A DNA stretch of 40,254 bases, taken from a virus (lineage: Duplodnaviria; Heunggongvirae; Uroviricota; Caudoviricetes). The stretch lies in IMG/VR virus record IMGVR_UViG_2541047843_000009, one strand, 5' to 3'. Position numbers and translations under genes: made by a program. The notes below the pieces were generated by a model that was not told the origin of the DNA, searched no databases, and saw only the letters and a list, made by a program, of their open reading frames with translations. Positions 19,209 through 34,760 of this stretch are shown here, piece after piece. Position 1 is the first letter of the stretch. The number at the start of each line of letters is the position of its first letter.

Positions 19209-20975
19209 ATGAACACCACACTGACACCCGCAGATCTCGATCCCCGTCGGCAGGCCATGCTGCTGTACTTTCAGGGATACCGCGTAGCCCGCATTGCTGA
19301 AATGCTGGGCGAGAAAGTTGCAACCGTTCACAGCTGGAAAAAACGCGACAAGTGGGGTGACTATGGGCCGCTGGATCAGATGCAGCTCACCACCGCCGCA
19401 CGCTACTGCCAGCTCATTATGAAGGAGCACAAAGAAGGGAAAGATTTCAAAGAGATTGACCTGCTGGCGCGCCAGTCGGAGCGCCATGCGCGGATCGGCA
19501 AGTTTAACAATGGCGGCAACGAAGCCGACTTAAACCCTAACGTCGCCAACCGCAACAAAGGCCCGCGCCGTCAGCCGGAAAAGAACGTTTTCACCGATGA
19601 ACAGATTGAGAAGTTGGAAGAAATCTTCCATTCCTCCATGTTCAACTACCAGCGCCACTGGTGGGAAGCCGGAAAAACCAACCGCATCCGCAACCTGCTG
19701 AAGTCACGCCAGATCGGCGCGACCTTCTATTTTGCCCGTGAAGCCCTGATTGACGCCCTGCTAACCGGGCGTAACCAGATTTTCCTTTCCGCCAGCAAGG
19801 CTCAGGCCCACGTCTTTAAGCAGTACATCATCGACTTCGCCAAAGAAGTGGAGGTGGAGCTGAAAGGCGATCCGATGGTGCTTCCTAACGGGGCCACGCT
19901 GTACTTCCTCGGCACCAATGCCCGCACGGCCCAGAGTTACCACGGCAACCTGTATCTGGATGAATATTTCTGGATACCGAAATTCCAGGAGCTGCGCAAA
20001 GTGGCTTCCGGTATGGCTATTCACAAAAAATGGCGACAAACCTATTTTTCCACGCCATCCAGCCTGACACACAGTGCTTATCCGTTCTGGTCCGGTGCGC
20101 TGTTCAACCGAGGGCGCAACAAAGCCGATAAGGTGGACATCGACCTGTCCCACAGCAATCTGGCCCCCGGCCTGCTGTGCGCAGACGGGCAGTACCGCCA
20201 GATAGTCACTGTGGAAGATGCGGTGCGCGGCGGCTGTAACCTGTTCGACCTCGACCAGTTGCGCATGGAGTACAGCCCGGACGAATACCAGAACCTGCTG
20301 ATGTGTGAGTTCGTGGACGATCTCGCGTCTGTGTTCCCACTCAGCGAGCTGCAGGCGTGCATGGTGGACAGTTGGGAAGTCTGGACCGACTTTCATGCAC
20401 TGGCCCTGCGCCCGTTTGGCTGGCGCGAAGTGTGGATCGGATATGACCCGGCGAAAGGTACGCAGAACGGCGACAGCGCCGGATGCGTGGTGGTGGCGCC
20501 GCCAGCCGTGCCGGGCGGTAAGTTCCGCATTCTTGAGCGTCACCAGTGGCGCGGAATGGACTTCCGCGCCCAGGCTGACGCCATCAAAAAACTGACCGAA
20601 CAGTACAACGTGACCTATATCGGTATCGACTCAACCGGCGTTGGTCACGGGGTTTACGAGAACGTGAAAGCGTTTTTTCCTGCCGTCCGGGAGTTTGTCT
20701 ACAACCCCAACGTTAAAAACGCCCTGGTACTCAAGGCCTACGACATTATCAGCCACCGCCGTCTGGAGTTTGACGCCGGACACACCGACATAGCGCAGTC
20801 CTTTATGGCAATCCGTCGCGCCACCACCGCCAGTGGCAACCGCCCGACCTATGAAGCCAGCCGCAGCGAAGAAGCCAGCCACGCCGATCTGGCCTGGGCA
20901 ACGATGCACGCACTGTTTAACGAACCGCTGCAGGGCGAATCCGCCAATACCAGCAATATTGTGGAGATTTTTTGA
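19209..20975 (+). CDS. P: Terminase large (ATPase) subunit P
   Basis: 588 aa; 4-nt overlap with Q. Confidence 0.9.
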   Translation: MNTTLTPADLDPRRQAMLLYFQGYRVARIAEMLGEKVATVHSWKKRDKWGDYGPLDQMQLTTAARYCQLIMKEHKEGKDFKEIDLLARQSERHARIGKFNNGGNEADLNPNVANRNKGPRRQPEKNVFTDEQIEKLEEIFHSSMFNYQRHWWEAGKTNRIRNLLKSRQIGATFYFAREALIDALLTGRNQIFLSASKAQAHVFKQYIIDFAKEVEVELKGDPMVLPNGATLYFLGTNARTAQSYHGNLYLDEYFWIPKFQELRKVASGMAIHKKWRQTYFSTPSSLTHSAYPFWSGALFNRGRNKADKVDIDLSHSNLAPGLLCADGQYRQIVTVEDAVRGGCNLFDLDQLRMEYSPDEYQNLLMCEFVDDLASVFPLSELQACMVDSWEVWTDFHALALRPFGWREVWIGYDPAKGTQNGDSAGCVVVAPPAVPGGKFRILERHQWRGMDFRAQADAIKKLTEQYNVTYIGIDSTGVGHGVYENVKAFFPAVREFVYNPNVKNALVLKAYDIISHRRLEFDAGHTDIAQSFMAIRRATTASGNRPTYEASRSEEASHADLAWATMHALFNEPLQGESANTSNIVEIF

Positions 20976-22009
20976 TGGGAAAGAGTAAGAAGAACCGCGC
21001 TGCGGCGACGAAACAGATCCAGCTTAAAAGTCAAACTACAGCCGAAGCATTCAGCTTCGGCGATCCCGTTCCTGTTCTGGACCGCCGAGAACTGCTGGAT
21101 TATGTGGAATGCGTACAGATGGACCGCTGGTATGAGCCGCCCGTCAGCTTTGACGGACTGGCGCGCACCTTCCGCGCTGCCGTTCATCATAGTTCCCCGA
21201 TTGCAGTAAAGTGCAACATTCTGACCAGCACCTACATCCCTCACCCGCTGCTCAGCCAGCAGGCTTTTTCGCGTTTTGTGCAGGACTATCTGGTATTTGG
21301 TAACGCCTACCTGGAGAAACGCACGAACCGCTTCGGTGAAGTTATCGCCCTTGAACCTGCCTTGGCAAAATACACCCGACGCGGGTTAGACCTGGATACC
21401 TACTGGTTTGTGCAATACGGTATGACCACGCAGCCATATCAGTTCACGAAAGGCAGCATCTTTCATCTGATGGAACCGGACATCAACCAGGAGATCTACG
21501 GCCTGCCCGGTTATCTTTCTGCTATTCCATCCGCCCTGCTCAACGAGTCTGCCACGCTGTTCCGCCGCAAGTATTACATTAACGGCAGTCATGCAGGCTT
21601 CATCATGTATATGACCGACGCCGCGCAGAACCAGGAAGATGTGAACAACCTCCGCAACGCGATGAAAAGCGCCAAAGGCCCTGGCAACTTCCGCAACCTG
21701 TTTATGTACTCGCCTAACGGCAAAAAGGACGGGCTTCAGATCATCCCGTTGTCAGAAGTCGCAGCGAAAGATGAATTTCTGAACATCAAGAACGTGAGCC
21801 GGGACGACATGATGGCTGCACACCGCGTACCGCCTCAGATGATGGGAATTTTGCCGAATAATGTTGGGGGGTTTGGGGATGTGGAGAAGGCAAGTCGGGT
21901 ATTTGTTCGTAATGAATTAATACCTTTGCAAAAACGTTTCGAAGAATTAAATTTATGGCTAAAAAATAATATTATTACATTCAAAGAATATCAACTATCC
22001 CTAGACTAA
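20972..22009 (+). CDS. Q: Portal protein Q
   Basis: 345 aa; the last 35 codons or so are AT-rich. Confidence 0.85.
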   Translation: MMGKSKKNRAAATKQIQLKSQTTAEAFSFGDPVPVLDRRELLDYVECVQMDRWYEPPVSFDGLARTFRAAVHHSSPIAVKCNILTSTYIPHPLLSQQAFSRFVQDYLVFGNAYLEKRTNRFGEVIALEPALAKYTRRGLDLDTYWFVQYGMTTQPYQFTKGSIFHLMEPDINQEIYGLPGYLSAIPSALLNESATLFRRKYYINGSHAGFIMYMTDAAQNQEDVNNLRNAMKSAKGPGNFRNLFMYSPNGKKDGLQIIPLSEVAAKDEFLNIKNVSRDDMMAAHRVPPQMMGILPNNVGGFGDVEKASRVFVRNELIPLQKRFEELNLWLKNNIITFKEYQLSLD

Positions 22010-22056: not shown

Positions 22057-23466
22057 TTACTCATCTACTCTGATTTTTTGTTTTTTATTATTTTGAGTTA
22101 AGACATTTATGGTAATAGATGTATACGGATGAAAGTCAGGAACTATACTTTTAACCTCTCCATTTTCAAGAAAATGATGTGCTATTGAAGGAAATAAATC
22201 AGGATCTACAGGATATTTAGCATTAGGATTATGATACATATTTAAACCTTCTGCCCATGTTTCTGTAATATCGCCTTCTTTCACTTCAAAACTAAATGCT
22301 GCTGGATATAATGCCTCTGGGTCATGATCATGGCAGTAACCACTCCTAAATAATCTAAGGTCACTTCTTCCAAAACCAGCCAGTTTTCCCATCCGATTAA
22401 ACTTCGATATAGTACCACTATTAGAACTAAGGACGGCCGAAATATTTTCAGACTCATCCAAGAAGAAAAAGCCTGAAGGAATTTCCTTTTTCTCAAATTG
22501 ATGCGATATAATTTTCTTAGTTGCTAAACTGTAACATCCATCTTCAGATTTAACATGCTCATAGCGAATACCATAAAGATACTGCCAAAGTGCACTATGG
22601 GACCAAATCATAGAGTTTGGTTCATGAAAATCAGCAATTGCGAAAATTAAAGGATTCCCCTTAACATGTTCTAGATCCCAGTATCGAGTTTTCTTTTTCA
22701 GTTTAGAATAGAGAGAACTTCCAAATTTAATCGGCATATAATTCTCTATTTTCTCTAGCAATTCTTCCTTACTTTTAGGTTCTGATAGCATTTCAGATGA
22801 TTGATTAATATCATTCCCTGTTGGATTAACCGTTACAGCTTCAATGCAAATAGTATTACCATACTTACGTGCCACATAATCAGGGGCATTAAACTGCCTA
22901 TCTAGCCAAAAGTGTTCCTCTCGTAAATATGCGAAAAGATATAACTCCCATAGCCGGGCATCAAAACCTGTTGTCTGAAACTGCTCTATAAAATTCCCGT
23001 CGACATCCTCAAAATGATTCATCATTTCCTTGATTATCCCTGTTGCAGGCGACCAGTTCGCGTATTTACCAAATAATGAAAAATGATGATGAAGTTTATC
23101 TGGTGTAACTATAGGTGTGAATAAATCCATTGCTTTATAAGTTTCATCACCTTGTGGAAATACTTTTACGTTTAATTTAGTATGCTTCCGCATTAATTTC
23201 TTTAGTTTTGCTCGTGCAGAATTCATTTCTGAAACACTAGTAAATAGGTCAATACATCTATATCTCCCACTTAAGTCTCTTGCTAAAACAATACCGCTAT
23301 AATCTTCATCGATTTGATCCAATAATAGTGCCCCTAGCAGGAACTCTCTCGGACTACAGTACCACTCAAACTCATAGCCTAAAAGTTCAGTATTTGGCAT
23401 TCTGGTCCAATCAACAAAAGCATTAAACCTCTCTTTACTCATTTTTTTTATATCAAGAAAAGACAT
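22057..23466 (-). CDS. Hypothetical 469-aa protein; AT-rich cargo gene, candidate anti-phage defence or abortive-infection protein of unassigned family
   Basis: Long ORF in clearly AT-rich DNA between portal and cos, convergent with Q; GAGGT about 9 nt before the ATG; no Walker A motif; no family recognised. Confidence 0.7.
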   Translation of the reverse strand: MSFLDIKKMSKERFNAFVDWTRMPNTELLGYEFEWYCSPREFLLGALLLDQIDEDYSGIVLARDLSGRYRCIDLFTSVSEMNSARAKLKKLMRKHTKLNVKVFPQGDETYKAMDLFTPIVTPDKLHHHFSLFGKYANWSPATGIIKEMMNHFEDVDGNFIEQFQTTGFDARLWELYLFAYLREEHFWLDRQFNAPDYVARKYGNTICIEAVTVNPTGNDINQSSEMLSEPKSKEELLEKIENYMPIKFGSSLYSKLKKKTRYWDLEHVKGNPLIFAIADFHEPNSMIWSHSALWQYLYGIRYEHVKSEDGCYSLATKKIISHQFEKKEIPSGFFFLDESENISAVLSSNSGTISKFNRMGKLAGFGRSDLRLFRSGYCHDHDPEALYPAAFSFEVKEGDITETWAEGLNMYHNPNAKYPVDPDLFPSIAHHFLENGEVKSIVPDFHPYTSITINVLTQNNKKQKIRVDE

Positions 23467-24364: not shown

Positions 24365-26779
24365 TTAATACAGGTTCCGCCACTGATCATCTTCCTGCAA
24401 ACGCTGGTTCCGATAGAAGATACGCAGGCCTGCTCCTGACGGAATACTGCCTCCGCGAAGGAGTAAATCGACCTCTTTCTCGCTGCCATCAAATCCTCTG
24501 GACTTCAGCTCATACACGAGCTGCAGTCGCTGATGGTCTGTAATTCGCTGTTTGTAGTCTTTACGCCGTTTCGGTTTCACCAGGCGTAACCTTGCTGCCA
24601 GTTCCCGGCGCTCTTTTTTGCTCATACTGTGCAGGTAATCGTGCAACTCCTTGTCATCCATGCTGGTAATGTCCGTTCTGGGGTCCCCATCAGCTGATTT
24701 ATCTTTCTCCTGTTGGTTCAAATTTTCAGCAAGGGGACAGTTATTGCCACGAGTCCAAGGGGCGCAAGCGCCCTGGTCGGCTGCCGCCTCCTGAACGTCA
24801 ACGGCCTTACGAACCATTTTCCACTTCACGGCATGAGTGCAGATCTTGCCCTCTGCAATAGGTGACCAGATGCCATAAATACGAATGCCGTGATCGCCAT
24901 AGGCGGTCGGCTCTTCGTTGATTTCATAAGCAGTTCTGATAAGGTGATATTTACGGGGAACCAGTACGCCGCCCTGCTTCATGATGTAGGTGGCAAAACA
25001 ACCAGCATCAGCAGCAGCCAGGATTGCATCAAGGCGCGGGTTATCCAGTACCGGCGCACCTGCTTTTTTGTCACCCTGTTGCCTTGCCGCCTGACCAGCC
25101 AGCAATCGCAGTTCACGGTAAGCCTGACGCCCCGGAATGCCAAAGAAGCGGAATTGCTGAACACGATGCAGAGACGCCCAGGCATTCACGTATTCAGCGT
25201 TATCACGCAGGGATTTACCCGTTTCCTTGCTGATCTCGCCAGCCAGACCACGCCCGTCAATGTTCTTACTGATATATTTCGCGATGTAGCTTGTCGGCGT
25301 TCCTTTGCGCGGGTTAATCAACTCAGACTTAAAGCGCGGCCCCGTGTTATTGCCCAGCTCCTCGCGGTCTTCACGGATGGCAAACTTACGCAGTAATGCA
25401 GTGATGGCGCGGCGGTCTTTTTTGCGCATAAAACACAACAGGTGCCAGTGAACTGTACCGTCATGATGCGGCTCAGCCACCCGCACGCCATACCAGCGCA
25501 ATCCGGCTTTGTGCATCGCCTTACGAAATGCAGCAAACATGCCGACCAAATAATCACTGCTTTGTCTTACCGTCGCATTTGTCCAGTTCGGGTTGGGTCT
25601 GCCGTTATTTAGCGTGGAATGGAAACGTGACGGACAGGTGATGGTGTAGAAAACGGCGCAGTCACCGCGCATTTCCGCGATAAGTTCCAGACCTTTAACA
25701 CAGGCCATCATCTCATTGCGGCGATGCGCAGGGTTGCTGCTGCTGGCGTTTACCACATCCTCCATGTCCAGCGTGTCGCCGTCTTCGTTCACCAGTTCAT
25801 GAGAACGGAAAAACTCCAGCGACTTACGGCGCTGCTCACGTTTATGCATCACGGCTTCATAGCTGACATAAGGAGATGCTTTTTTGCTGACCAGGCAGAC
25901 AGCGCGCAACTGCTCTTCCCGCCATTCGCAACGCATCTTCCATAATTTCCGGTACCACCAGTCAGCGCACAACATACGCGCCAGCGAACCCGGAATGAGT
26001 TCATAGGGCACGGGTTTACGGCGGTTTCTTTTCCGACGGAGTTGCTCAAACGCAGGCGGGATAACATCCAGACGCAGGGTTTCCGCTGCCACCTTTTCCC
26101 ATGTCTTGCGGATTTCTTCTGGCTTAACGTCATCGGTGGCATACAAATCACCACAAGCTGCATCAAGGCACATGCTCATATGCGCAGCGACAAGGGTAGA
26201 CAGGCGCTTCACCTGATCCTGACTCATTTCAGGCAGGATAAGCAGGCCATCCAGCCCTTCATGGCTTGCCATAAAGCGAAAAGAAGCGGATAGCTGACTG
26301 TCGCGTACATGCTCCAGTCGTTCCAGACATGGCTTAATCGTCTCACGCAAATAGCGGGAATAAGCCTTTGGCCTGCCCAGGCTGCTGAAGTATTCAATAC
26401 GTTGCATCAGCGGCTTGCTGATATGGGAAGGCTGGGCATTGACGTCCGCCAGAATGACCATATCTGGATTAAAACGCTGCTGCTCATGCGCCAGCTTTGC
26501 CCGACTAATGAGCTTATCCTGCTCCATTTCGCGCTGGACAGGATCACGGGATTCATTAAAGAAATAACGCTCCCAGACCTGATCACTCAGTGCCTCGCGG
26601 CGCAGCTGTTCCTGCTCGTTATCGGCAGCGTACAGAGTGATCAGGTTTGAAAGCGCAGAAACCGGCGCAACTTCCGCCGGGTCCAGATAAGGGTTAATGG
26701 CCTTTTTCGGGCTGTTCCATGAGAACGATGCGGCAGCCTCGTTAAAGCCGCAGCAGTTGTTCATATCGGCATGGCTCAT
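24365..26779 (-). CDS. A: Replication initiation endonuclease A (rolling-circle, HUH type)
   Basis: 804 aa; [10 protein letters not shown] motif; ATGA overlap with the upstream methylase gene. Confidence 0.9.
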
Positions 26780-29705: not shown

Positions 29706-29821
29706 AGTGCAGTATCTCTTAGTTTGGTTTCGTTTTATCTTGTTTTATGTGGTTTGGTTTTGCTTTTCAAACCATGAATGGATATTAAGATCACTTTTTA
29801 TATACGTCAAGAGGTTTGATT
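29706..29821. promoter_or_regulatory. Lysis-lysogeny switch region between the divergent apl and cI genes
   Basis: Direct repeats gtttggttt at 29722-29730 and 29752-29760 in AT-rich DNA. Confidence 0.5.
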
Positions 29822-30454
29822 ATGAGCTTAATCAAAGCGGGAAATGATAGTGGTGGGCGCGATGCAATTAACAGGCTTATTAAGGCTTACAACTTCAGCT
29901 CACGACAGCAGCTCTGCGAACATCTGGAAGTATCCAAAAGCACTATGGCTAACAGATACTTAAGGGATAGCTTTCCTGCCGAATGGGTAATTCAATGTGC
30001 CCTTGAAACAGGAGCTTCCCTTCTATGGCTGGCTACTGGTCAAGGAGATATGTATGCGTGTGAGAACGAAGAAACAAATCTCAAAAATGAACCTCCCGTC
30101 ACTGTAAGACCACTTTCTAAGATCGTTGCTCCTAGCATCAAACGTGTTGAACTGAAGAACGGCGAACTGCAGGCAAGTGATGAAATTCTTATTGATAGCA
30201 GCCTGCTCGATGGTGACTCATCCAACGCTTTATTTGTTAAAACAGCTAATAATAGCTTTGTAGTGGATACGTCCGTTAAACAAGTCAGTAATGGCTTCTG
30301 GTTAGTCGATATGGACGGAGTTAAAAGCATCGTCAAAATTGCGCGCATACCCGGAAACAAAATAGTAGTTAGCCAAGATGACACTTCATTTGAATGTTCT
30401 GTAGATGATGTGGAAGTCGTAGGACGTGCAGTCAAAGTAATCAAGAACCTCTAA
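29822..30454 (+). CDS. cI: CI immunity repressor (186 type)
   Basis: CALETGASLLWLATGQG motif as I recall in 186 CI; start taken at the ATG after GAGG (the track start is a TTG); 210 aa. Confidence 0.8.
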   Translation: MSLIKAGNDSGGRDAINRLIKAYNFSSRQQLCEHLEVSKSTMANRYLRDSFPAEWVIQCALETGASLLWLATGQGDMYACENEETNLKNEPPVTVRPLSKIVAPSIKRVELKNGELQASDEILIDSSLLDGDSSNALFVKTANNSFVVDTSVKQVSNGFWLVDMDGVKSIVKIARIPGNKIVVSQDDTSFECSVDDVEVVGRAVKVIKNL

Positions 30455-30457
30455 CTT

Positions 30458-31474
30458 ATGACCATCAGAAAACAGCCGAACGGAAAATGGTTGTGTGAGT
30501 GCTATCCCAATGGACGCAATGGTAAGCGCGTGCGTAAGCAATTTGCTACCAAAGGCGAAGCCATTGCATTTGAAAGCTTCACAATGGAAGAAGTGAACAA
30601 AAAACCGTGGTTAGGAGAAAAGGATGATCGGCGACACCTATCAGAATTAATTGAGCTTTGGTATTCCCTGTATGGTCAGACACTCGCAGACCCCAAGCGC
30701 CTCATGGCGAAACTTAGAATTATCTGTAATGGTCTAGGCGACCCCATCGCCTCAGAACTGACAGCCGGTGACTTTACGAAATACCGCGAAGCACGGTTAA
30801 AAGGTGAAGTACGAAATGAAGATGGCACGTTTATGTCGCCCGTTAAGCCCCGCACGGTAAACCTTGAACAGCGCAATCTATCATCTGTTTTTGGTACGCT
30901 GAAAAAGCTGGGCCACTGGTCAGCCCCCAACCCGCTTGCTGGGCTGCCAACATTTAAAATTGCTGAGAGTGAATTGGCGTTCCTGACCCCGGAAGAAATT
31001 AAACGTCTGCTGGATGCCTGCGCCGATTCTCAAAGCTCCAGCCTGCTTTTGATTGCAAAAATATGCCTGGCCACCGGCGCACGCTGGAGCGAAGCCGAAA
31101 ACCTGCAGAGTCATCAGGTATCAAAATACCGTATCACTTATACCAAGACCAAAGGCAAGAAAAACCGAACTGTGCCTATTTCTAAGGATTTATATGAAGA
31201 ACTGCCTAAGAATAGGGGGAAGTTATTCACCCCATGCAGAAAAGCCTTTGAGCGTGCAGTAAAGCGGGCTGGTATCGATCTGCCAGAGGGTCAATGTACT
31301 CACGTTCTGCGTCATACATTCGCTAGCCATTTTATGATGAATGGTGGAAACATATTGGTTTTGCGGGATATCCTAGGACATTCAGATATAAAAATGACCA
31401 TGGTCTATGCACACTTCGCCCCAGACCATTTAGAAGATGCCGTAACTAAAAATCCTTTATTTAATTTGAGGTAA
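30458..31474 (+). CDS. int: Tyrosine integrase (P2/186 type)
   Basis: 338 aa; C-terminal ...HVLRHTFASHF...LGHSDIKMTMVYAH catalytic region with the Tyr. Confidence 0.9.
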   Translation: MTIRKQPNGKWLCECYPNGRNGKRVRKQFATKGEAIAFESFTMEEVNKKPWLGEKDDRRHLSELIELWYSLYGQTLADPKRLMAKLRIICNGLGDPIASELTAGDFTKYREARLKGEVRNEDGTFMSPVKPRTVNLEQRNLSSVFGTLKKLGHWSAPNPLAGLPTFKIAESELAFLTPEEIKRLLDACADSQSSSLLLIAKICLATGARWSEAENLQSHQVSKYRITYTKTKGKKNRTVPISKDLYEELPKNRGKLFTPCRKAFERAVKRAGIDLPEGQCTHVLRHTFASHFMMNGGNILVLRDILGHSDIKMTMVYAHFAPDHLEDAVTKNPLFNLR

Positions 31475-31484
31475 GTAGTAATTT

Positions 31485-32153
31485 ATGAATAGCGAACTAG
31501 AGTTACTTATAAAAATATTATTCCCTTCCCTATCTGCCATTATATCCTTATTAGGGCTTAAAACAGGGTGGACTTATAAAAAAGATAAACTATTCACATC
31601 ACGTAAAAACATTAGCGAATTTTCATATCAGATGTATAAAAGCAGTGAAGATCCGACCTTCAAAAAACTGGCGGAAGATTACGGCATTGCTGCATTAACC
31701 AAAGATAACACATTGACAAAAAAACAAAGATTAATATTACTCAACACAACAAACCCCGTTAGCGATATAGATAATTATTCCAAATGTCAAAGTCTAATTT
31801 CCATTACCACCCATAAAGAAATATTCGCATGGAATAAAAAAAGATATAAATACAGCATATATAGAAAATTAATAAAAATCATAACAACTCTAATTTACTT
31901 CATGAGCAGTCTCATCGTAGCACTTCCTTTCAGTTATTCTGTTGTAGTAAGTGCTAAGATGATGGAGAAGATAAACCATCTAACTACTTGGCAATACTTT
32001 GGTTTAAGCAGCTATTTTGTGGTATCGGGAGTAGCAATATGCTTTATCTGCCTAGATAAGCTCTCCAAGATTAAGATCGCCGAGAGATTAATCGTTTCGA
32101 ATAGGCGTTTAGGCGACAAATGCAGTGGCGGCACTTTGGCGGCAGAAAGTTAA
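31485..32153 (+). CDS. Hypothetical AT-rich membrane protein (222 aa, about 3 transmembrane helices); candidate moron or superinfection-exclusion gene
   Basis: Starts 10 nt after the int stop; hydrophobic helices at the N-terminus and around residues 133-157 and 172-191; very AT-rich. Confidence 0.6.
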   Translation: MNSELELLIKILFPSLSAIISLLGLKTGWTYKKDKLFTSRKNISEFSYQMYKSSEDPTFKKLAEDYGIAALTKDNTLTKKQRLILLNTTNPVSDIDNYSKCQSLISITTHKEIFAWNKKRYKYSIYRKLIKIITTLIYFMSSLIVALPFSYSVVVSAKMMEKINHLTTWQYFGLSSYFVVSGVAICFICLDKLSKIKIAERLIVSNRRLGDKCSGGTLAAES

Positions 32154-32237: not shown

Positions 32238-32282
32238 TATGTAGGAATTTCGGACGCGGGTTCAACTCCCGCCAGCTCCACC
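32238..32282 (+). other. ssrA: 45-nt copy of the tmRNA (ssrA) 3' end; prophage att core at the prophage-host junction
   Basis: atgtaggaatttcggacgcgggttcaactcccgccagctccacca matches the ssrA 3' terminus as I recall it; the sequence upstream does not continue as ssrA, so this is a core duplicate. Confidence 0.7.
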
Positions 32283-32386
32283 AATCATGATTGGACGGTG
32301 TAAGGACAACACCAACAAAAACAGGAAGTTAGCAGTCTCAGCAGGACACCGACCAGACGGTGAGGAGACAAAAAAGGATACGCAAA

Positions 32387-32440
32387 GGAGCCGCGGCTCC
32401 CAAGTGACATGAAAGCCCGCATCTGCGGGCTTTTTCGTTT
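32387..32440 (+). terminator. Structured region: 14-nt palindrome (32387-32400) plus an intrinsic terminator hairpin and T-run (32415-32440)
   Basis: ggagccgcggctcc, then gcccgc-atct-gcgggc followed by tttttcgttt. Confidence 0.5.
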
Positions 32441-32583: not shown

Positions 32584-32853
32584 ATGGAAAATCTACTTTT
32601 TGTGATGTGTTGGATTAAAGATCATCATGTGATGTCATTAACTTTTGGCGTCTTATCTGCAATTTTATGGATTAAATCTGCTACAGCAAAAGTTGAGTTA
32701 GGCAAAAAAATTGTCATGGTTACGTATGAAGATCCCGAACTTAACGTGAATCTCCATGATTTCTTCGCCACTGCGCGGCTTCAATCTAAGTACAATTCAT
32801 TTGCAGCATTGTCTGCAGCAGCAACCGCGCTATTCCAGATTATTGGTTTGTAA
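32584..32853 (+). CDS. Hypothetical small hydrophobic protein (89 aa)
   Basis: AGGAAGGTGA ribosome-binding site; two hydrophobic segments; AT-rich. Confidence 0.45.
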   Translation: MENLLFVMCWIKDHHVMSLTFGVLSAILWIKSATAKVELGKKIVMVTYEDPELNVNLHDFFATARLQSKYNSFAALSAAATALFQIIGL

Positions 32854-32991: not shown

Positions 32992-33354
32992 CTAGAGAAT
33001 ACAAAGAACATCATCTGGTGTTAACACAGAGTCTTCTACGTACTCAGGGTGGTTACGTAATACATCTCTCTGATGTCTCAAGATCTGCGCTGGAATTTCT
33101 TGCTCATCCACAATTTTGGCAGTATCCAGCAAAATACTGCCACACCTTATTTCCAGCAAAACAAAGCGATTCCACTCTGGACCGTTAGAACACAAAAGGT
33201 CAAACAAAACCTCACCTGTAGCCTGTGAATTGCCCAGTATAACAGAAAGCCTCTTCTCGATTTCGTGAACTGAAGTCAAGGGGTTCTCGTAGCCAGTCGC
33301 CATAACGACGGCAATGAGAGCCCCTGAGACGTTAACACCTGTTATTTCAAACAA
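32992..33354 (-). CDS. rnlB: RnlB-like antitoxin
   Basis: 120 aa; start overlaps the rnlA-like stop by 8 nt; resembles E. coli RnlB (from memory). Confidence 0.65.
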   Translation of the reverse strand: MFEITGVNVSGALIAVVMATGYENPLTSVHEIEKRLSVILGNSQATGEVLFDLLCSNGPEWNRFVLLEIRCGSILLDTAKIVDEQEIPAQILRHQRDVLRNHPEYVEDSVLTPDDVLCIL

Positions 33355-34417
33355 TATACAAATCCTTAATAATTCCCCATGCCTGTCTGGCCTTAGTCAT
33401 CAGTCGTGCCATGTCAGAAACCATACGGCTTGTGTCGACAACTATCTCCATATGGAACAGGCCATGACGTTCTCTGTTAAAGAAAGTATAGGCATCATTA
33501 ATGGTCTTAACCTTAGCTGACGATAAATTGCATCCAAATTGTTGTTTCAGAATAAATTCACTCCCAATTTTATCAAAATAAGGTCCGAAACCATCCTGCG
33601 TGATTGGCATGCCATATCGGTACATTGTTGATTTAAGTACTCCCTCAACTGAACGTAATTCAGGATACAACAACATACAGTAATCGGGTAAATCGGGGGC
33701 GGCGAGTTTAACACACAGCCCAGAAACGAGCAATTTTTCAACATTCTTATGCAATAGTGGGTACGCATCCCCCATTTCACACTCTAGATGTGAGCGAGCA
33801 ACTTCTTTCTGAACTATATACGCTTTGCCATCGTCCTGACGAATGAGAACTTTTTCCAGACCTTGTAAATCGAGTAGCTCTGACAAGTTGAATATAAACA
33901 CTCTATAACATGACAATGGACGCCCTTGTATTTGTAGTGTTCCATTTCTGTGATGCAGACTAACTGTCAACTCATCCTGAAATTCTGGCGAATGAATTTT
34001 CCACACCGTTGTATGAGTGTTCCGTAAGTATTCGTAAAATTGTATATGTGGCTGCTCTGCTGAGAGCTGAAGTACAGATAAAACGTTCGCTTCAACGAAC
34101 CCTTGTAACACCATATTTACCTGTTCAAATTCTGCAGGATTGATGGTTTCATAGAGATTATCAGCCAACTCTTTGCCAAGATTATGATTAGCTCCTGTTT
34201 GATACTGGACTGTAGACGTCCCTCCGTTATTATAGAAAATGTTAACAGTTGCCAAAGCTTCTCCTGGTTTAGCAAACACAACCCGAAGTCCTGCTCTTGT
34301 ACCAGGCATTGGTCCAATTGAATGGACGGAATAGTTTTTATTTTCAATAAATGCCCTAGACGTAGCCTCAATAGTTGTCCGATCCAAATTTAAATTAGTG
34401 TAGTTCCTGACTGTCAT
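33347..34417 (-). CDS. rnlA: RnlA-like endoribonuclease toxin (RNase LS family)
   Basis: 356 aa from MTVRNYTNLNL..., resembling the E. coli RnlA N-terminus and length (from memory); two-gene operon with the antitoxin. Confidence 0.65.
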   Translation of the reverse strand: MTVRNYTNLNLDRTTIEATSRAFIENKNYSVHSIGPMPGTRAGLRVVFAKPGEALATVNIFYNNGGTSTVQYQTGANHNLGKELADNLYETINPAEFEQVNMVLQGFVEANVLSVLQLSAEQPHIQFYEYLRNTHTTVWKIHSPEFQDELTVSLHHRNGTLQIQGRPLSCYRVFIFNLSELLDLQGLEKVLIRQDDGKAYIVQKEVARSHLECEMGDAYPLLHKNVEKLLVSGLCVKLAAPDLPDYCMLLYPELRSVEGVLKSTMYRYGMPITQDGFGPYFDKIGSEFILKQQFGCNLSSAKVKTINDAYTFFNRERHGLFHMEIVVDTSRMVSDMARLMTKARQAWGIIKDLYIV

Positions 34418-34476
34418 TTGCTTAACCCTATAAAAAACTTTAGCAAACTCTACAATATAGCCCCTCTTTAGTCTAA

Positions 34477-34760
34477 TCAGGCGCTGTATCCTGAAATCGG
34501 GTACCGATAATATCCCTCCTGCAGCCATGTGTTGGTGTTAACAAGATACTGTGTATCAATTGAATCCGTCAGACTGCAAAAGTTGATACCTCTTTCGCGC
34601 AGTTCCTCCACCAGCACGACAAGATGCCTCATACTGCGCCTCAGTCGGTCCAGTTTCCAGACCACCAGAGTGTCACCTGCCGATAATGTCCTGAGAAATT
34701 TTTTAGCCCGGGTCTTTCGGGCGTTGTAACGCTGATTTTATCTTCAAAATCAGCGCGCAT
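34477..34760 (-). pseudogene. Truncated, frameshifted Pin-type DNA invertase remnant
   Basis: MVWKLDRLRRSMRHLVVLVEELRERGINFCSLTDSIDT matches the central part of the invertase at 7294-7860; DNA similarity continues upstream out of frame; the C-terminal helix-turn-helix half is missing. Confidence 0.7.

Follow-up and report, generated by a model that had tools for sequence, protein, structure and literature searches.

The stretch of viral DNA analysed here (40,254 nt, IMG/VR record IMGVR_UViG_2541047843_000009; referred to as the window) contains an open reading frame, designated ORF222, between the integrase gene and the attachment site of a prophage. The analysis established that ORF222 is a real, selectively maintained, single-gene cargo cassette, which belongs to an uncharacterised protein family (phrog_21256) and is placed in a documented minor hotspot. 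Since this slot often holds anti-phage genes, ORF222 is a reasonable candidate for a phage-exclusion protein. Tenants of P2 hotspots without a known function are common, and the presence of ORF222 would not surprise a specialist; what is new here is a defined family that has no sequence or structural relatives and occupies a clear habitat.

The left 32 kb of the window constitute a prophage of the P2 family (186/Fels-2 type). Towards the att site, the order of its components is 186-type CI, tyrosine integrase, ORF222 and attR. The features referred to in the text are listed below.

22057-23466, minus strand: PD-T7-1 defence gene (469 aa, 34% GC; PADLOC 1.4e-196, 652 bits, full-length match)
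29816-30454, plus strand: gene for a 186-type CI (Pfam Phage_CI_repr, 8e-33; Phage_CI_C, 8e-40)
30458-31474, plus strand: int, encoding an ssrA-specific tyrosine integrase of the Fels-2/SopEPhi type (Pfam Int_N, Phage_integrase)
31466-32125, plus strand: cargo module (33% GC), missing from the empty-slot relatives (alignment with E. coli T28R and phage SEN8)
31468-31471, plus strand: GAGG, a Shine-Dalgarno-like motif, which abuts the int stop codon (31472-31474) and lies 13 nt before the ATG
31485-32153, plus strand: ORF222 (ATG start, 222 aa), a member of phrog_21256
31503-31559, plus strand: predicted TM1, aa 7-25 (hydropathy, charge bias; AF2 helix 2-54)
31560-31868, plus strand: predicted basic cytoplasmic domain of about 105 aa (21-22 K/R vs 10 D/E), helical with one beta-hairpin
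31869-32057, plus strand: predicted TM2 (aa 129-157), periplasmic loop (158-171) and TM3 (172-191) (hydropathy, AF2)
32058-32105, plus strand: conserved C-terminal helix, predicted to be cytoplasmic, with which the family core ends (S.I.IAE.LI.SNR; alignments A1 and A2)
32106-32153, plus strand: allele-specific 15-residue tail (RLGDKCSGGTLAAES, followed by the stop codon), made of ancestral int-3'/attP-arm DNA
32126-32144, plus strand: direct repeat, two copies of TGGCGGCA starting at 32126 and 32137 (11 nt start to start)
32239-32283, plus strand: 45-nt copy of the ssrA 3' end (ATGTAGGAATTTCGGACGCGGGTTCAACTCCCGCCAGCTCCACCA), the attR core

Apart from the block at 32239-32283, the window has no copy of the ssrA 3' end, and neither ARAGORN nor Rfam detected a tmRNA gene in it; the block was therefore assigned as attR, with attL and ssrA itself lying beyond the left edge. 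In E. coli genomes with the same locus, the early region (Rha/Apl-CII-Fil-DUF5347-DUF2732-TraR-Dam-gpA) is encoded by the other strand. The PD-T7-1 gene is situated between the portal gene (20972-22009) and gpA (24365-26779), i.e. in the main P2 hotspot (old/tin) and, taken together with ORF222, it reveals that the prophage has cargo in two hotspots.

An earlier note on this DNA had described a very AT-rich ORF of 222 aa, which starts 10 nt downstream of the int stop codon, ends 85 nt before the ssrA core and encodes hydrophobic helices. This description proved accurate throughout: the int stop codon ends at 31474 and the core starts at 32239, the GC content rises from 34.4% in ORF222 to 46.5% in int and to 55% in the structural half of the prophage (window positions 1-21500), and the Kyte-Doolittle peaks (residues 7-25, 129-157 and 172-191) match the helices. 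ORF222 is a genuine gene, and a chance reading frame is ruled out, because a stop-free run of at least 150 codons (observed, 214) never arose when the 660-nt module was shuffled 5000 times (first-order Markov), and the analytic probability of an open run of this length is about 2e-8. Of 5426 complete E. coli genomes, 29 have the allele with its frame intact (at least 99% identity), all 29 with full-length coverage, and every copy with annotation listed or inspected is annotated as a CDS.

The same note regarded ORF222 as acquired cargo, a view that is borne out by the empty-slot relatives, in which int is joined directly to the attP arm and which therefore delimit the cargo to the base. In both T28R and SEN8, int (ending KNPLHNLNWHR and stop) runs straight into the attP arm (ATGGCGGCACTTTGGCGGCAG, continuing to TAAAAAC), which is followed by the ssrA core. 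Compared with these sequences, the left junction of the cargo lies after position 31465 and the right junction between 32108 and 32125, and homology to the attP arm of Fels-2-like phages begins at 32126. The integrase shares 92-94% aa identity with Int of Fels-2, RE2010, SEN8 and Cartapus. Its C-terminus reads NPLFNLR, as opposed to NPLHNLNWHR in the empty-slot relatives (alignment A3), since the cargo junction lies inside the old 3' end of int.

The 33% GC module holds the entire family core of the protein, ending with IAERLIVSNR. The last 14 codons of ORF222 (LGDKCSGGTLAAES, then stop), starting from 32109, represent read-through of the old int-3'/attP-arm DNA, and most homologues (207-209 aa) are devoid of the 15-residue tail. 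Both TGGCGGCA repeats fall within these last codons, and are thus translated as part of the borrowed C-terminal tail. The same attP-arm repeat is common to T28R and SEN8, and occurs in a variant form, TGGCGACA, in a second allele of the cargo (P0008). The repeats probably constitute Int arm-type sites. The whole cargo module is located within attR, i.e. inside the mobilised element.

It was also stated in the earlier note that int normally abuts attP in such phages. This holds for Fels-2, SEN8 and Yersinia phage MLG42, in which the slot is empty, but not for the lineage as a whole, in which the slot is usually filled. The int family is present in 222 of the 5426 complete E. coli genomes. The ORF222 allele was found in 29 of these 222, a number equal to that of the genomes with an int at least 95% identical (15 + 14), and the P0008 allele (53% aa identity to ORF222) in two. 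Ten other int-bearing E. coli prophages were sampled: nine contained a different gene in the slot and one had none. The occupants in the sampled E. coli included (i) hypothetical proteins of 352-419 aa, (ii) a pair of 403 and 300 aa, (iii) an HNH protein (nuclease) and (iv) an anti-phage dCTP deaminase (L049:3995-5728; PADLOC dCTPase, 483 bits), encoded in the int-attR slot on the strand opposite to int. Elsewhere, the slot is occupied by orphans of 401 aa (RE2010, Cartapus and SopEPhi), 516 aa (a Klebsiella phage) and 339 aa (E. coli 13P477T). At least 10 different occupants, the dCTP deaminase included, were thus recorded among the relatives.

A 2026 paper lists integrase-att as a minor P2 defence hotspot, which contains 3% of P2 systems (PMC13586616). 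The locus studied here agrees with this hotspot in having variable genes between int and att, within the mobilised element, and the int-attP slot is a hypervariable, recognised minor hotspot rather than an oddity. The divergence of the alleles greatly exceeds that of the flanks (the cargo is 53% identical, Int 94%). Like other cargo of P2-family hotspots (old, tin and fun of P2; PD-T7-1; the integrase-att genes), ORF222 is AT-rich, swappable and inserted at a fixed junction but it matches no PADLOC model.

Two further observations concern neighbouring slots and tenants. The 401-aa orphan, which recurs in this slot in Salmonella and E. coli phages (L012:204-1409 in RE2010, L013:584-1789 in Cartapus and L051:3627-4832 in E. 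coli UTME-8), which had no match in Pfam or PADLOC, is labelled 'RES protein, NAD+ binding' in one record. A prophage remnant of Kosakonia sacchari (L041:1063-2753) carries genes of 221 and 342 aa with no known function between CI and int, a gap which constitutes a further variable position in the 186-like lysogenic operon; the phrog_21256 homologue of this element is placed elsewhere, between gpA and ogr/portal.

ORF222 matches phrog_21256 (PHROGs v4, listed as of unknown function) along its whole length (residues 1-222 on profile positions 1-222; E = 6.6e-155, 514 bits), and all 41 diverse aligned homologues match this family and no other. A word-indexed search returned 22 clusters (90% identity level), which come from E. 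coli, Siccibacter, Cronobacter and Klebsiella, and an exhaustive profile search of 1.84 billion representatives returned 76 clusters (50% identity level), of which 40 reached E <= 1e-10. The family reaches Orbaceae, Rahnella, Kosakonia, Citrobacter, Lonsdalea, Burkholderia and a Massilia-like genome. Nearly all of its members are 200-230 aa long, and length, topology and motifs are kept family-wide down to 17-25% identity. A second large protein search, with alignment A2, added little; a profile search of genome contigs with alignment A1 gave no confirmed locus, and neither the 50,697 deposited phage genomes nor the 72,556 plasmids searched by tblastn contained a match. Pfam, PADLOC, NCBIfam and PDB sequence searches produced no match that could be credited for ORF222 or the 41 homologues. 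The best scores among the 5027 models of PADLOC-DB v2.0.0, none of them significant, were those for Cas2_II (0.0073) and 1TM-TIR (0.012), each with one of the 41 members; the 1TM-TIR match was not repeated in other members and was discarded.

The main habitat of the family is the lysogenic-operon end of 186-like prophages. At 22 of 23 IMG/VR loci the homologue is located downstream of int and CI, on the same strand (locus L032 has neither CI nor int within the fetched stretch), with Int being 66-100% and the cargo 47-100% identical. The CI immunity types vary among the loci carrying the cassette, and at three loci an extra gene separates int from the homologue. 186-like prophages of E. coli, Rosenbergiella, Acerihabitans, Rahnella and a metagenome have homologues (29-53% identity) encoded downstream of cI/int and on their strand. 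The order is CI-int-homologue in Rosenbergiella (34% identity); the prophages of Acerihabitans, Rahnella and the metagenome (29-36% identity) have no int there, and their homologue comes immediately behind cI or is separated from it by one or two unrelated genes. A Kosakonia homologue (25% identity) is placed between gpA and ogr/portal, the classical old/tin site and main P2 defence hotspot, and that of Burkholderia ubonensis adjoins genes for a DNA methylase, a DUF2357/PDDEXK_7 protein and Vsr, with a transposase next door. The homologues of K. quasipneumoniae, Orbaceae and P0052 are chromosomal orphans among metabolic or housekeeping genes. No neighbouring gene was common to the contexts examined, which argues that the family acts alone. 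ORFs of 156 and 160 aa between cI and the homologue in Rahnella and Acerihabitans were considered as possible partners and rejected, as they are mutually unrelated. The earlier note would have been contradicted by a conserved core gene with a known non-defence role; the gene found here is recurrent beside cI/int, yet sporadic.

The K. quasipneumoniae homologue (L010/L011:6001-6624, 50% identity) stands alone between genes for an FAD monooxygenase and a LysR regulator, and its 90%-identity cluster comprises 245 member sequences. With no prophage nearby, it looks like a domesticated copy.

Hydropathy analysis and AF2 modelling both predict three transmembrane helices, and the charge bias predicts an N-out orientation. 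The N-terminus of ORF222 is acidic and is predicted to face the periplasm; the positive-inside rule puts it there together with the 14-residue loop between TM2 and TM3, and assigns the remainder of the protein to the cytoplasm. Family members share this layout, in which a loop of 100-115 aa (about 20 K/R vs about 11 D/E) separates the N-terminal TM from two further TMs, followed by a short helix containing AE.LI. Conservation is highest in the cytoplasmic domain (YGIAALTKD..LT..QR..LL, PV.DID.YSKC and W.KKRY..YR) and lowest in the periplasmic loop. R82 is the sole nearly invariant charged residue in the family, which suggests that the protein is probably not an enzyme.

An AF2 model built with 18 close sequences was poor (pLDDT 63), whereas that built with the 41 diverse sequences was confident (pLDDT 91.7, pTM 0.79). 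In the latter, the TM1 helix continues to residue 54 and is followed by a helical bundle with a beta-hairpin (57-116), TM2 (124-154), a short periplasmic helix and TM3, which extends to residue 215. The model has no structural neighbour among solved structures or viral models.

Several known membrane proteins were compared with ORF222. Its nearest analogue is SieA of P22, which is not a relative. SieA, a superinfection-exclusion protein with three TM helices that blocks DNA injection, like ORF222 by prediction is a small, partner-less, prophage-encoded inner-membrane protein specified by a single gene, and the sequences of both show the order TM1, basic cytoplasmic segment, TM2-TM3 hairpin and short conserved cytoplasmic tail. 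The cytoplasmic domain of ORF222 is about twice the length of that of SieA, and the genomic positions differ: SieA is encoded in the immI region of P22 and ORF222 at the cI-int-attP end of a P2-like phage. Kinship was rejected, as the hhalign probability, 9% with the single sequence, fell to 2.9% when alignment A2 was compared with the SieA alignment A4. Pfam PF26849 (SieA) matched neither ORF222 (threshold E <= 0.1) nor any of the 41 members (threshold E <= 0.01). The types of the SieA family share under 30% identity with one another and have the conserved cytoplasmic C-terminal motif FxRYPxEAxxFNK (PMC10883804). This motif is missing from ORF222, whose tail reads KLSKIKIAERLIVSNRR (family consensus S.I.IAE.LI.SNR).

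RexB of lambda is likewise a membrane protein; its gene follows cI in the immunity operon, and lysogens make the protein, which excludes other phages. However, it has four TM helices and needs RexA, whereas ORF222 has three predicted TMs and no conserved partner, and homology was rejected (hhalign, 0.1%). TolQ/ExbB (MotA_ExbB, PF01618) was taken up as a lead owing to its identical topology, a low Foldseek rank and one NCBIfam match. These proteins resemble ORF222 in size (230-244 vs 222 aa), N-out orientation and the succession of TM1, a cytoplasmic loop of about 100 aa and a TM2-TM3 hairpin, and also in TM helices that reach into the cytoplasm. This relationship was rejected as well: hhalign gave 0.6% for TolQ and 0.4% for ExbB, there was no Pfam match to PF01618 and no TolR/ExbD-type partner gene beside ORF222, and the NCBIfam tolQ match (8e-4, one of the 41 members) was treated as due to chance.

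The earlier note had suggested superinfection exclusion, abortive infection or lysogenic conversion as the function, a guess which fits the position, predicted topology and neighbours of ORF222. In phage 186, pE and pL drive the lysogenic operon, from which CI and Int are expressed (PMC8538670). A consensus scan detected no promoter or terminator motif between int and ORF222, and the simplest expectation, by analogy with 186, is that the gene is expressed by read-through in lysogens. We infer co-transcription, expression in the lysogen, an anti-phage function and a block of entry. ORF222 would be transcribed together with cI and int from the lysogenic promoters, and its product made continuously in the lysogen. 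The protein would insert into the inner membrane in the N-out orientation, with three helices, of which TM1 and TM2 flank the conserved basic domain (about 105 aa) on the cytoplasmic side, and with just some 20 residues protruding into the periplasm. It would then stop the delivery of phage genomes across the cytoplasmic membrane, matching SieA in logic and topology, not in ancestry, and would shield the lysogen, and hence the prophage, from other phages.

The best explanation of ORF222 would therefore be a lysogen-expressed inner-membrane protein that blocks genome delivery by other phages, and we put it forward tentatively, as having somewhat less than an even chance of being correct. In favour of an entry block are the small size of the protein, its lack of a partner and apparently of enzymatic activity, the constitutive expression that the position of the gene implies, and a predicted topology similar to that of SieA. 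For the family as a whole, it is nearly an even question whether the members of phrog_21256, hitherto unrecognised in this role, are inner-membrane anti-phage factors that are expressed by lysogens, work as single proteins, adopt a fold without neighbour among solved structures or viral models, and spread as a cassette among the cI/int operons of 186-like prophages across Enterobacterales, with occasional domestication in chromosomes.

An unlikely alternative is that ORF222 is an effector-sensor of abortive infection, whose cytoplasmic domain would sense a phage product, upon which the subunits would form a pore or collapse the membrane potential, and the lysogen would die before the invader replicates. 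By analogy, this would amount to the logic of lambda RexB, or of the 2-TM effectors of CBASS or SLATT, compressed into one protein. The conservation pattern described above is consistent with such a role, and so is the AF2 model, in which TM1 and TM3 extend as long cytoplasmic helices bearing a small globular domain, similar to a sensor on a stalk. The location of the gene in the cI operon, as for rexAB in lambda, also agrees, while the hotspot and the restriction-modification neighbours suit this mechanism and the entry block alike. However, ORF222 shows no likeness to RexB or to the SLATT Pfam models, the TM effectors of PADLOC gave one chance match among the 41 members, the helices are free of polar or charged pore-lining residues, and no recognisable sensor-type domain is present. 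In addition, the stable stand-alone copies in K. quasipneumoniae argue against a hair-trigger toxin.

A non-defence role in lysogenic conversion or envelope fitness is also doubtful; the protein might, for example, resemble immunity proteins against pore-forming bacteriocins or T6SS toxins, or be an accessory to acyltransferases or envelope homeostasis. Small inner-membrane proteins with three to four TMs are the classic form of immunity proteins against pore-formers. In a Massilia-like genome the homologue belongs to a GtrA/acyltransferase cluster, where an Acyl_transf_3 gene ends 20 nt before it; VasX_N and Tle1-like genes accompany another homologue in a T6SS effector island; and the chromosomal orphans among metabolic genes would also accord with this role. 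These contexts are, however, single and mutually inconsistent, none of the prophage copies examined has a toxin or acyltransferase neighbour, and the dominant habitat is the prophage lysogenic operon, together with defence hotspots.

It is improbable that ORF222 serves the cycle of the prophage itself, by acting from the membrane on integration/excision, on the maintenance or induction of lysogeny, or on lysis timing. The tight linkage with cI/int in many diverged 186-like prophages and the overlap of the 3' end of the gene with the putative Int arm sites would suit this role, but the gene is absent from Fels-2, SEN8, MLG42, 186-type relatives and about 190 of the 222 E. coli prophages of the int family (which have unrelated genes in the slot, or none), homologues also occur outside prophages, and the arm overlap is an allele-specific read-through that is not conserved. 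Least probable is a decaying or functionless hitchhiker at a recombination-prone junction, since the borrowed stop codon (from attP-arm DNA) and the suboptimal Shine-Dalgarno spacing are set against the full-length preservation of the allele in all 29 genomes, the family-wide conservation of length, topology and motifs, and the co-evolution signal that lifts the AF2 pLDDT from 63 to 92. Both of these readings are made less likely by the fact that the gene occurs sporadically in close relatives but is conserved in different orders.

The search for new immune mechanisms has been productive in prophage hotspots, whose membrane-only, non-enzymatic tenants are the least understood. The searches made here found no inner-membrane superinfection-exclusion protein for the P2/186 family; the literature searched reports no anti-phage phenotype for ORF222, and contains nothing under its protein accessions. 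With its defined junctions, alleles that are 53% identical in isogenic contexts and a confident model, phrog_21256 offers a compact single-gene test case. A positive phenotype, if found, would confirm that the int-att slot functions as a defence hotspot, and would provide a second, unrelated solution of the SieA type; a negative one would be a warning against inferring function from hotspot position. Should exclusion follow a new route (for example, jamming the entry of contractile-tailed phage genomes at the inner membrane, or sensing of a phage product by the conserved cytoplasmic domain), this would be a new mechanism class of prophage exclusion.

Additional features were recorded to the right of attR. 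About 125 nt past the ssrA core copy, at 32407-32436, there is a GC-rich hairpin with a T-run (AAGCCCGCATCTGCGGGCTTTTT), which looks like an intrinsic terminator, although it was not called by the consensus terminator scan; it could stop read-through from cI-int-ORF222. Just outside attR, an RnlA toxin (393 aa; domains RnlA_toxin_N, RnlA_toxin, DBD and HEPN) and an RnlB antitoxin (120 aa) are encoded on the minus strand (32992-34528). An ORF of 89 aa (32584-32853, plus strand) located between attR and rnlB contains a hydrophobic segment and matches phrog_14357 (unknown function, 4e-33). None of the complete E. coli genomes of the collection covers 80% or more of the right flank. The remainder of this flank corresponds to that end of a lambdoid prophage which encodes the tail fibre, gpJ and Lom, and this indicates that two elements are arranged in tandem at ssrA.
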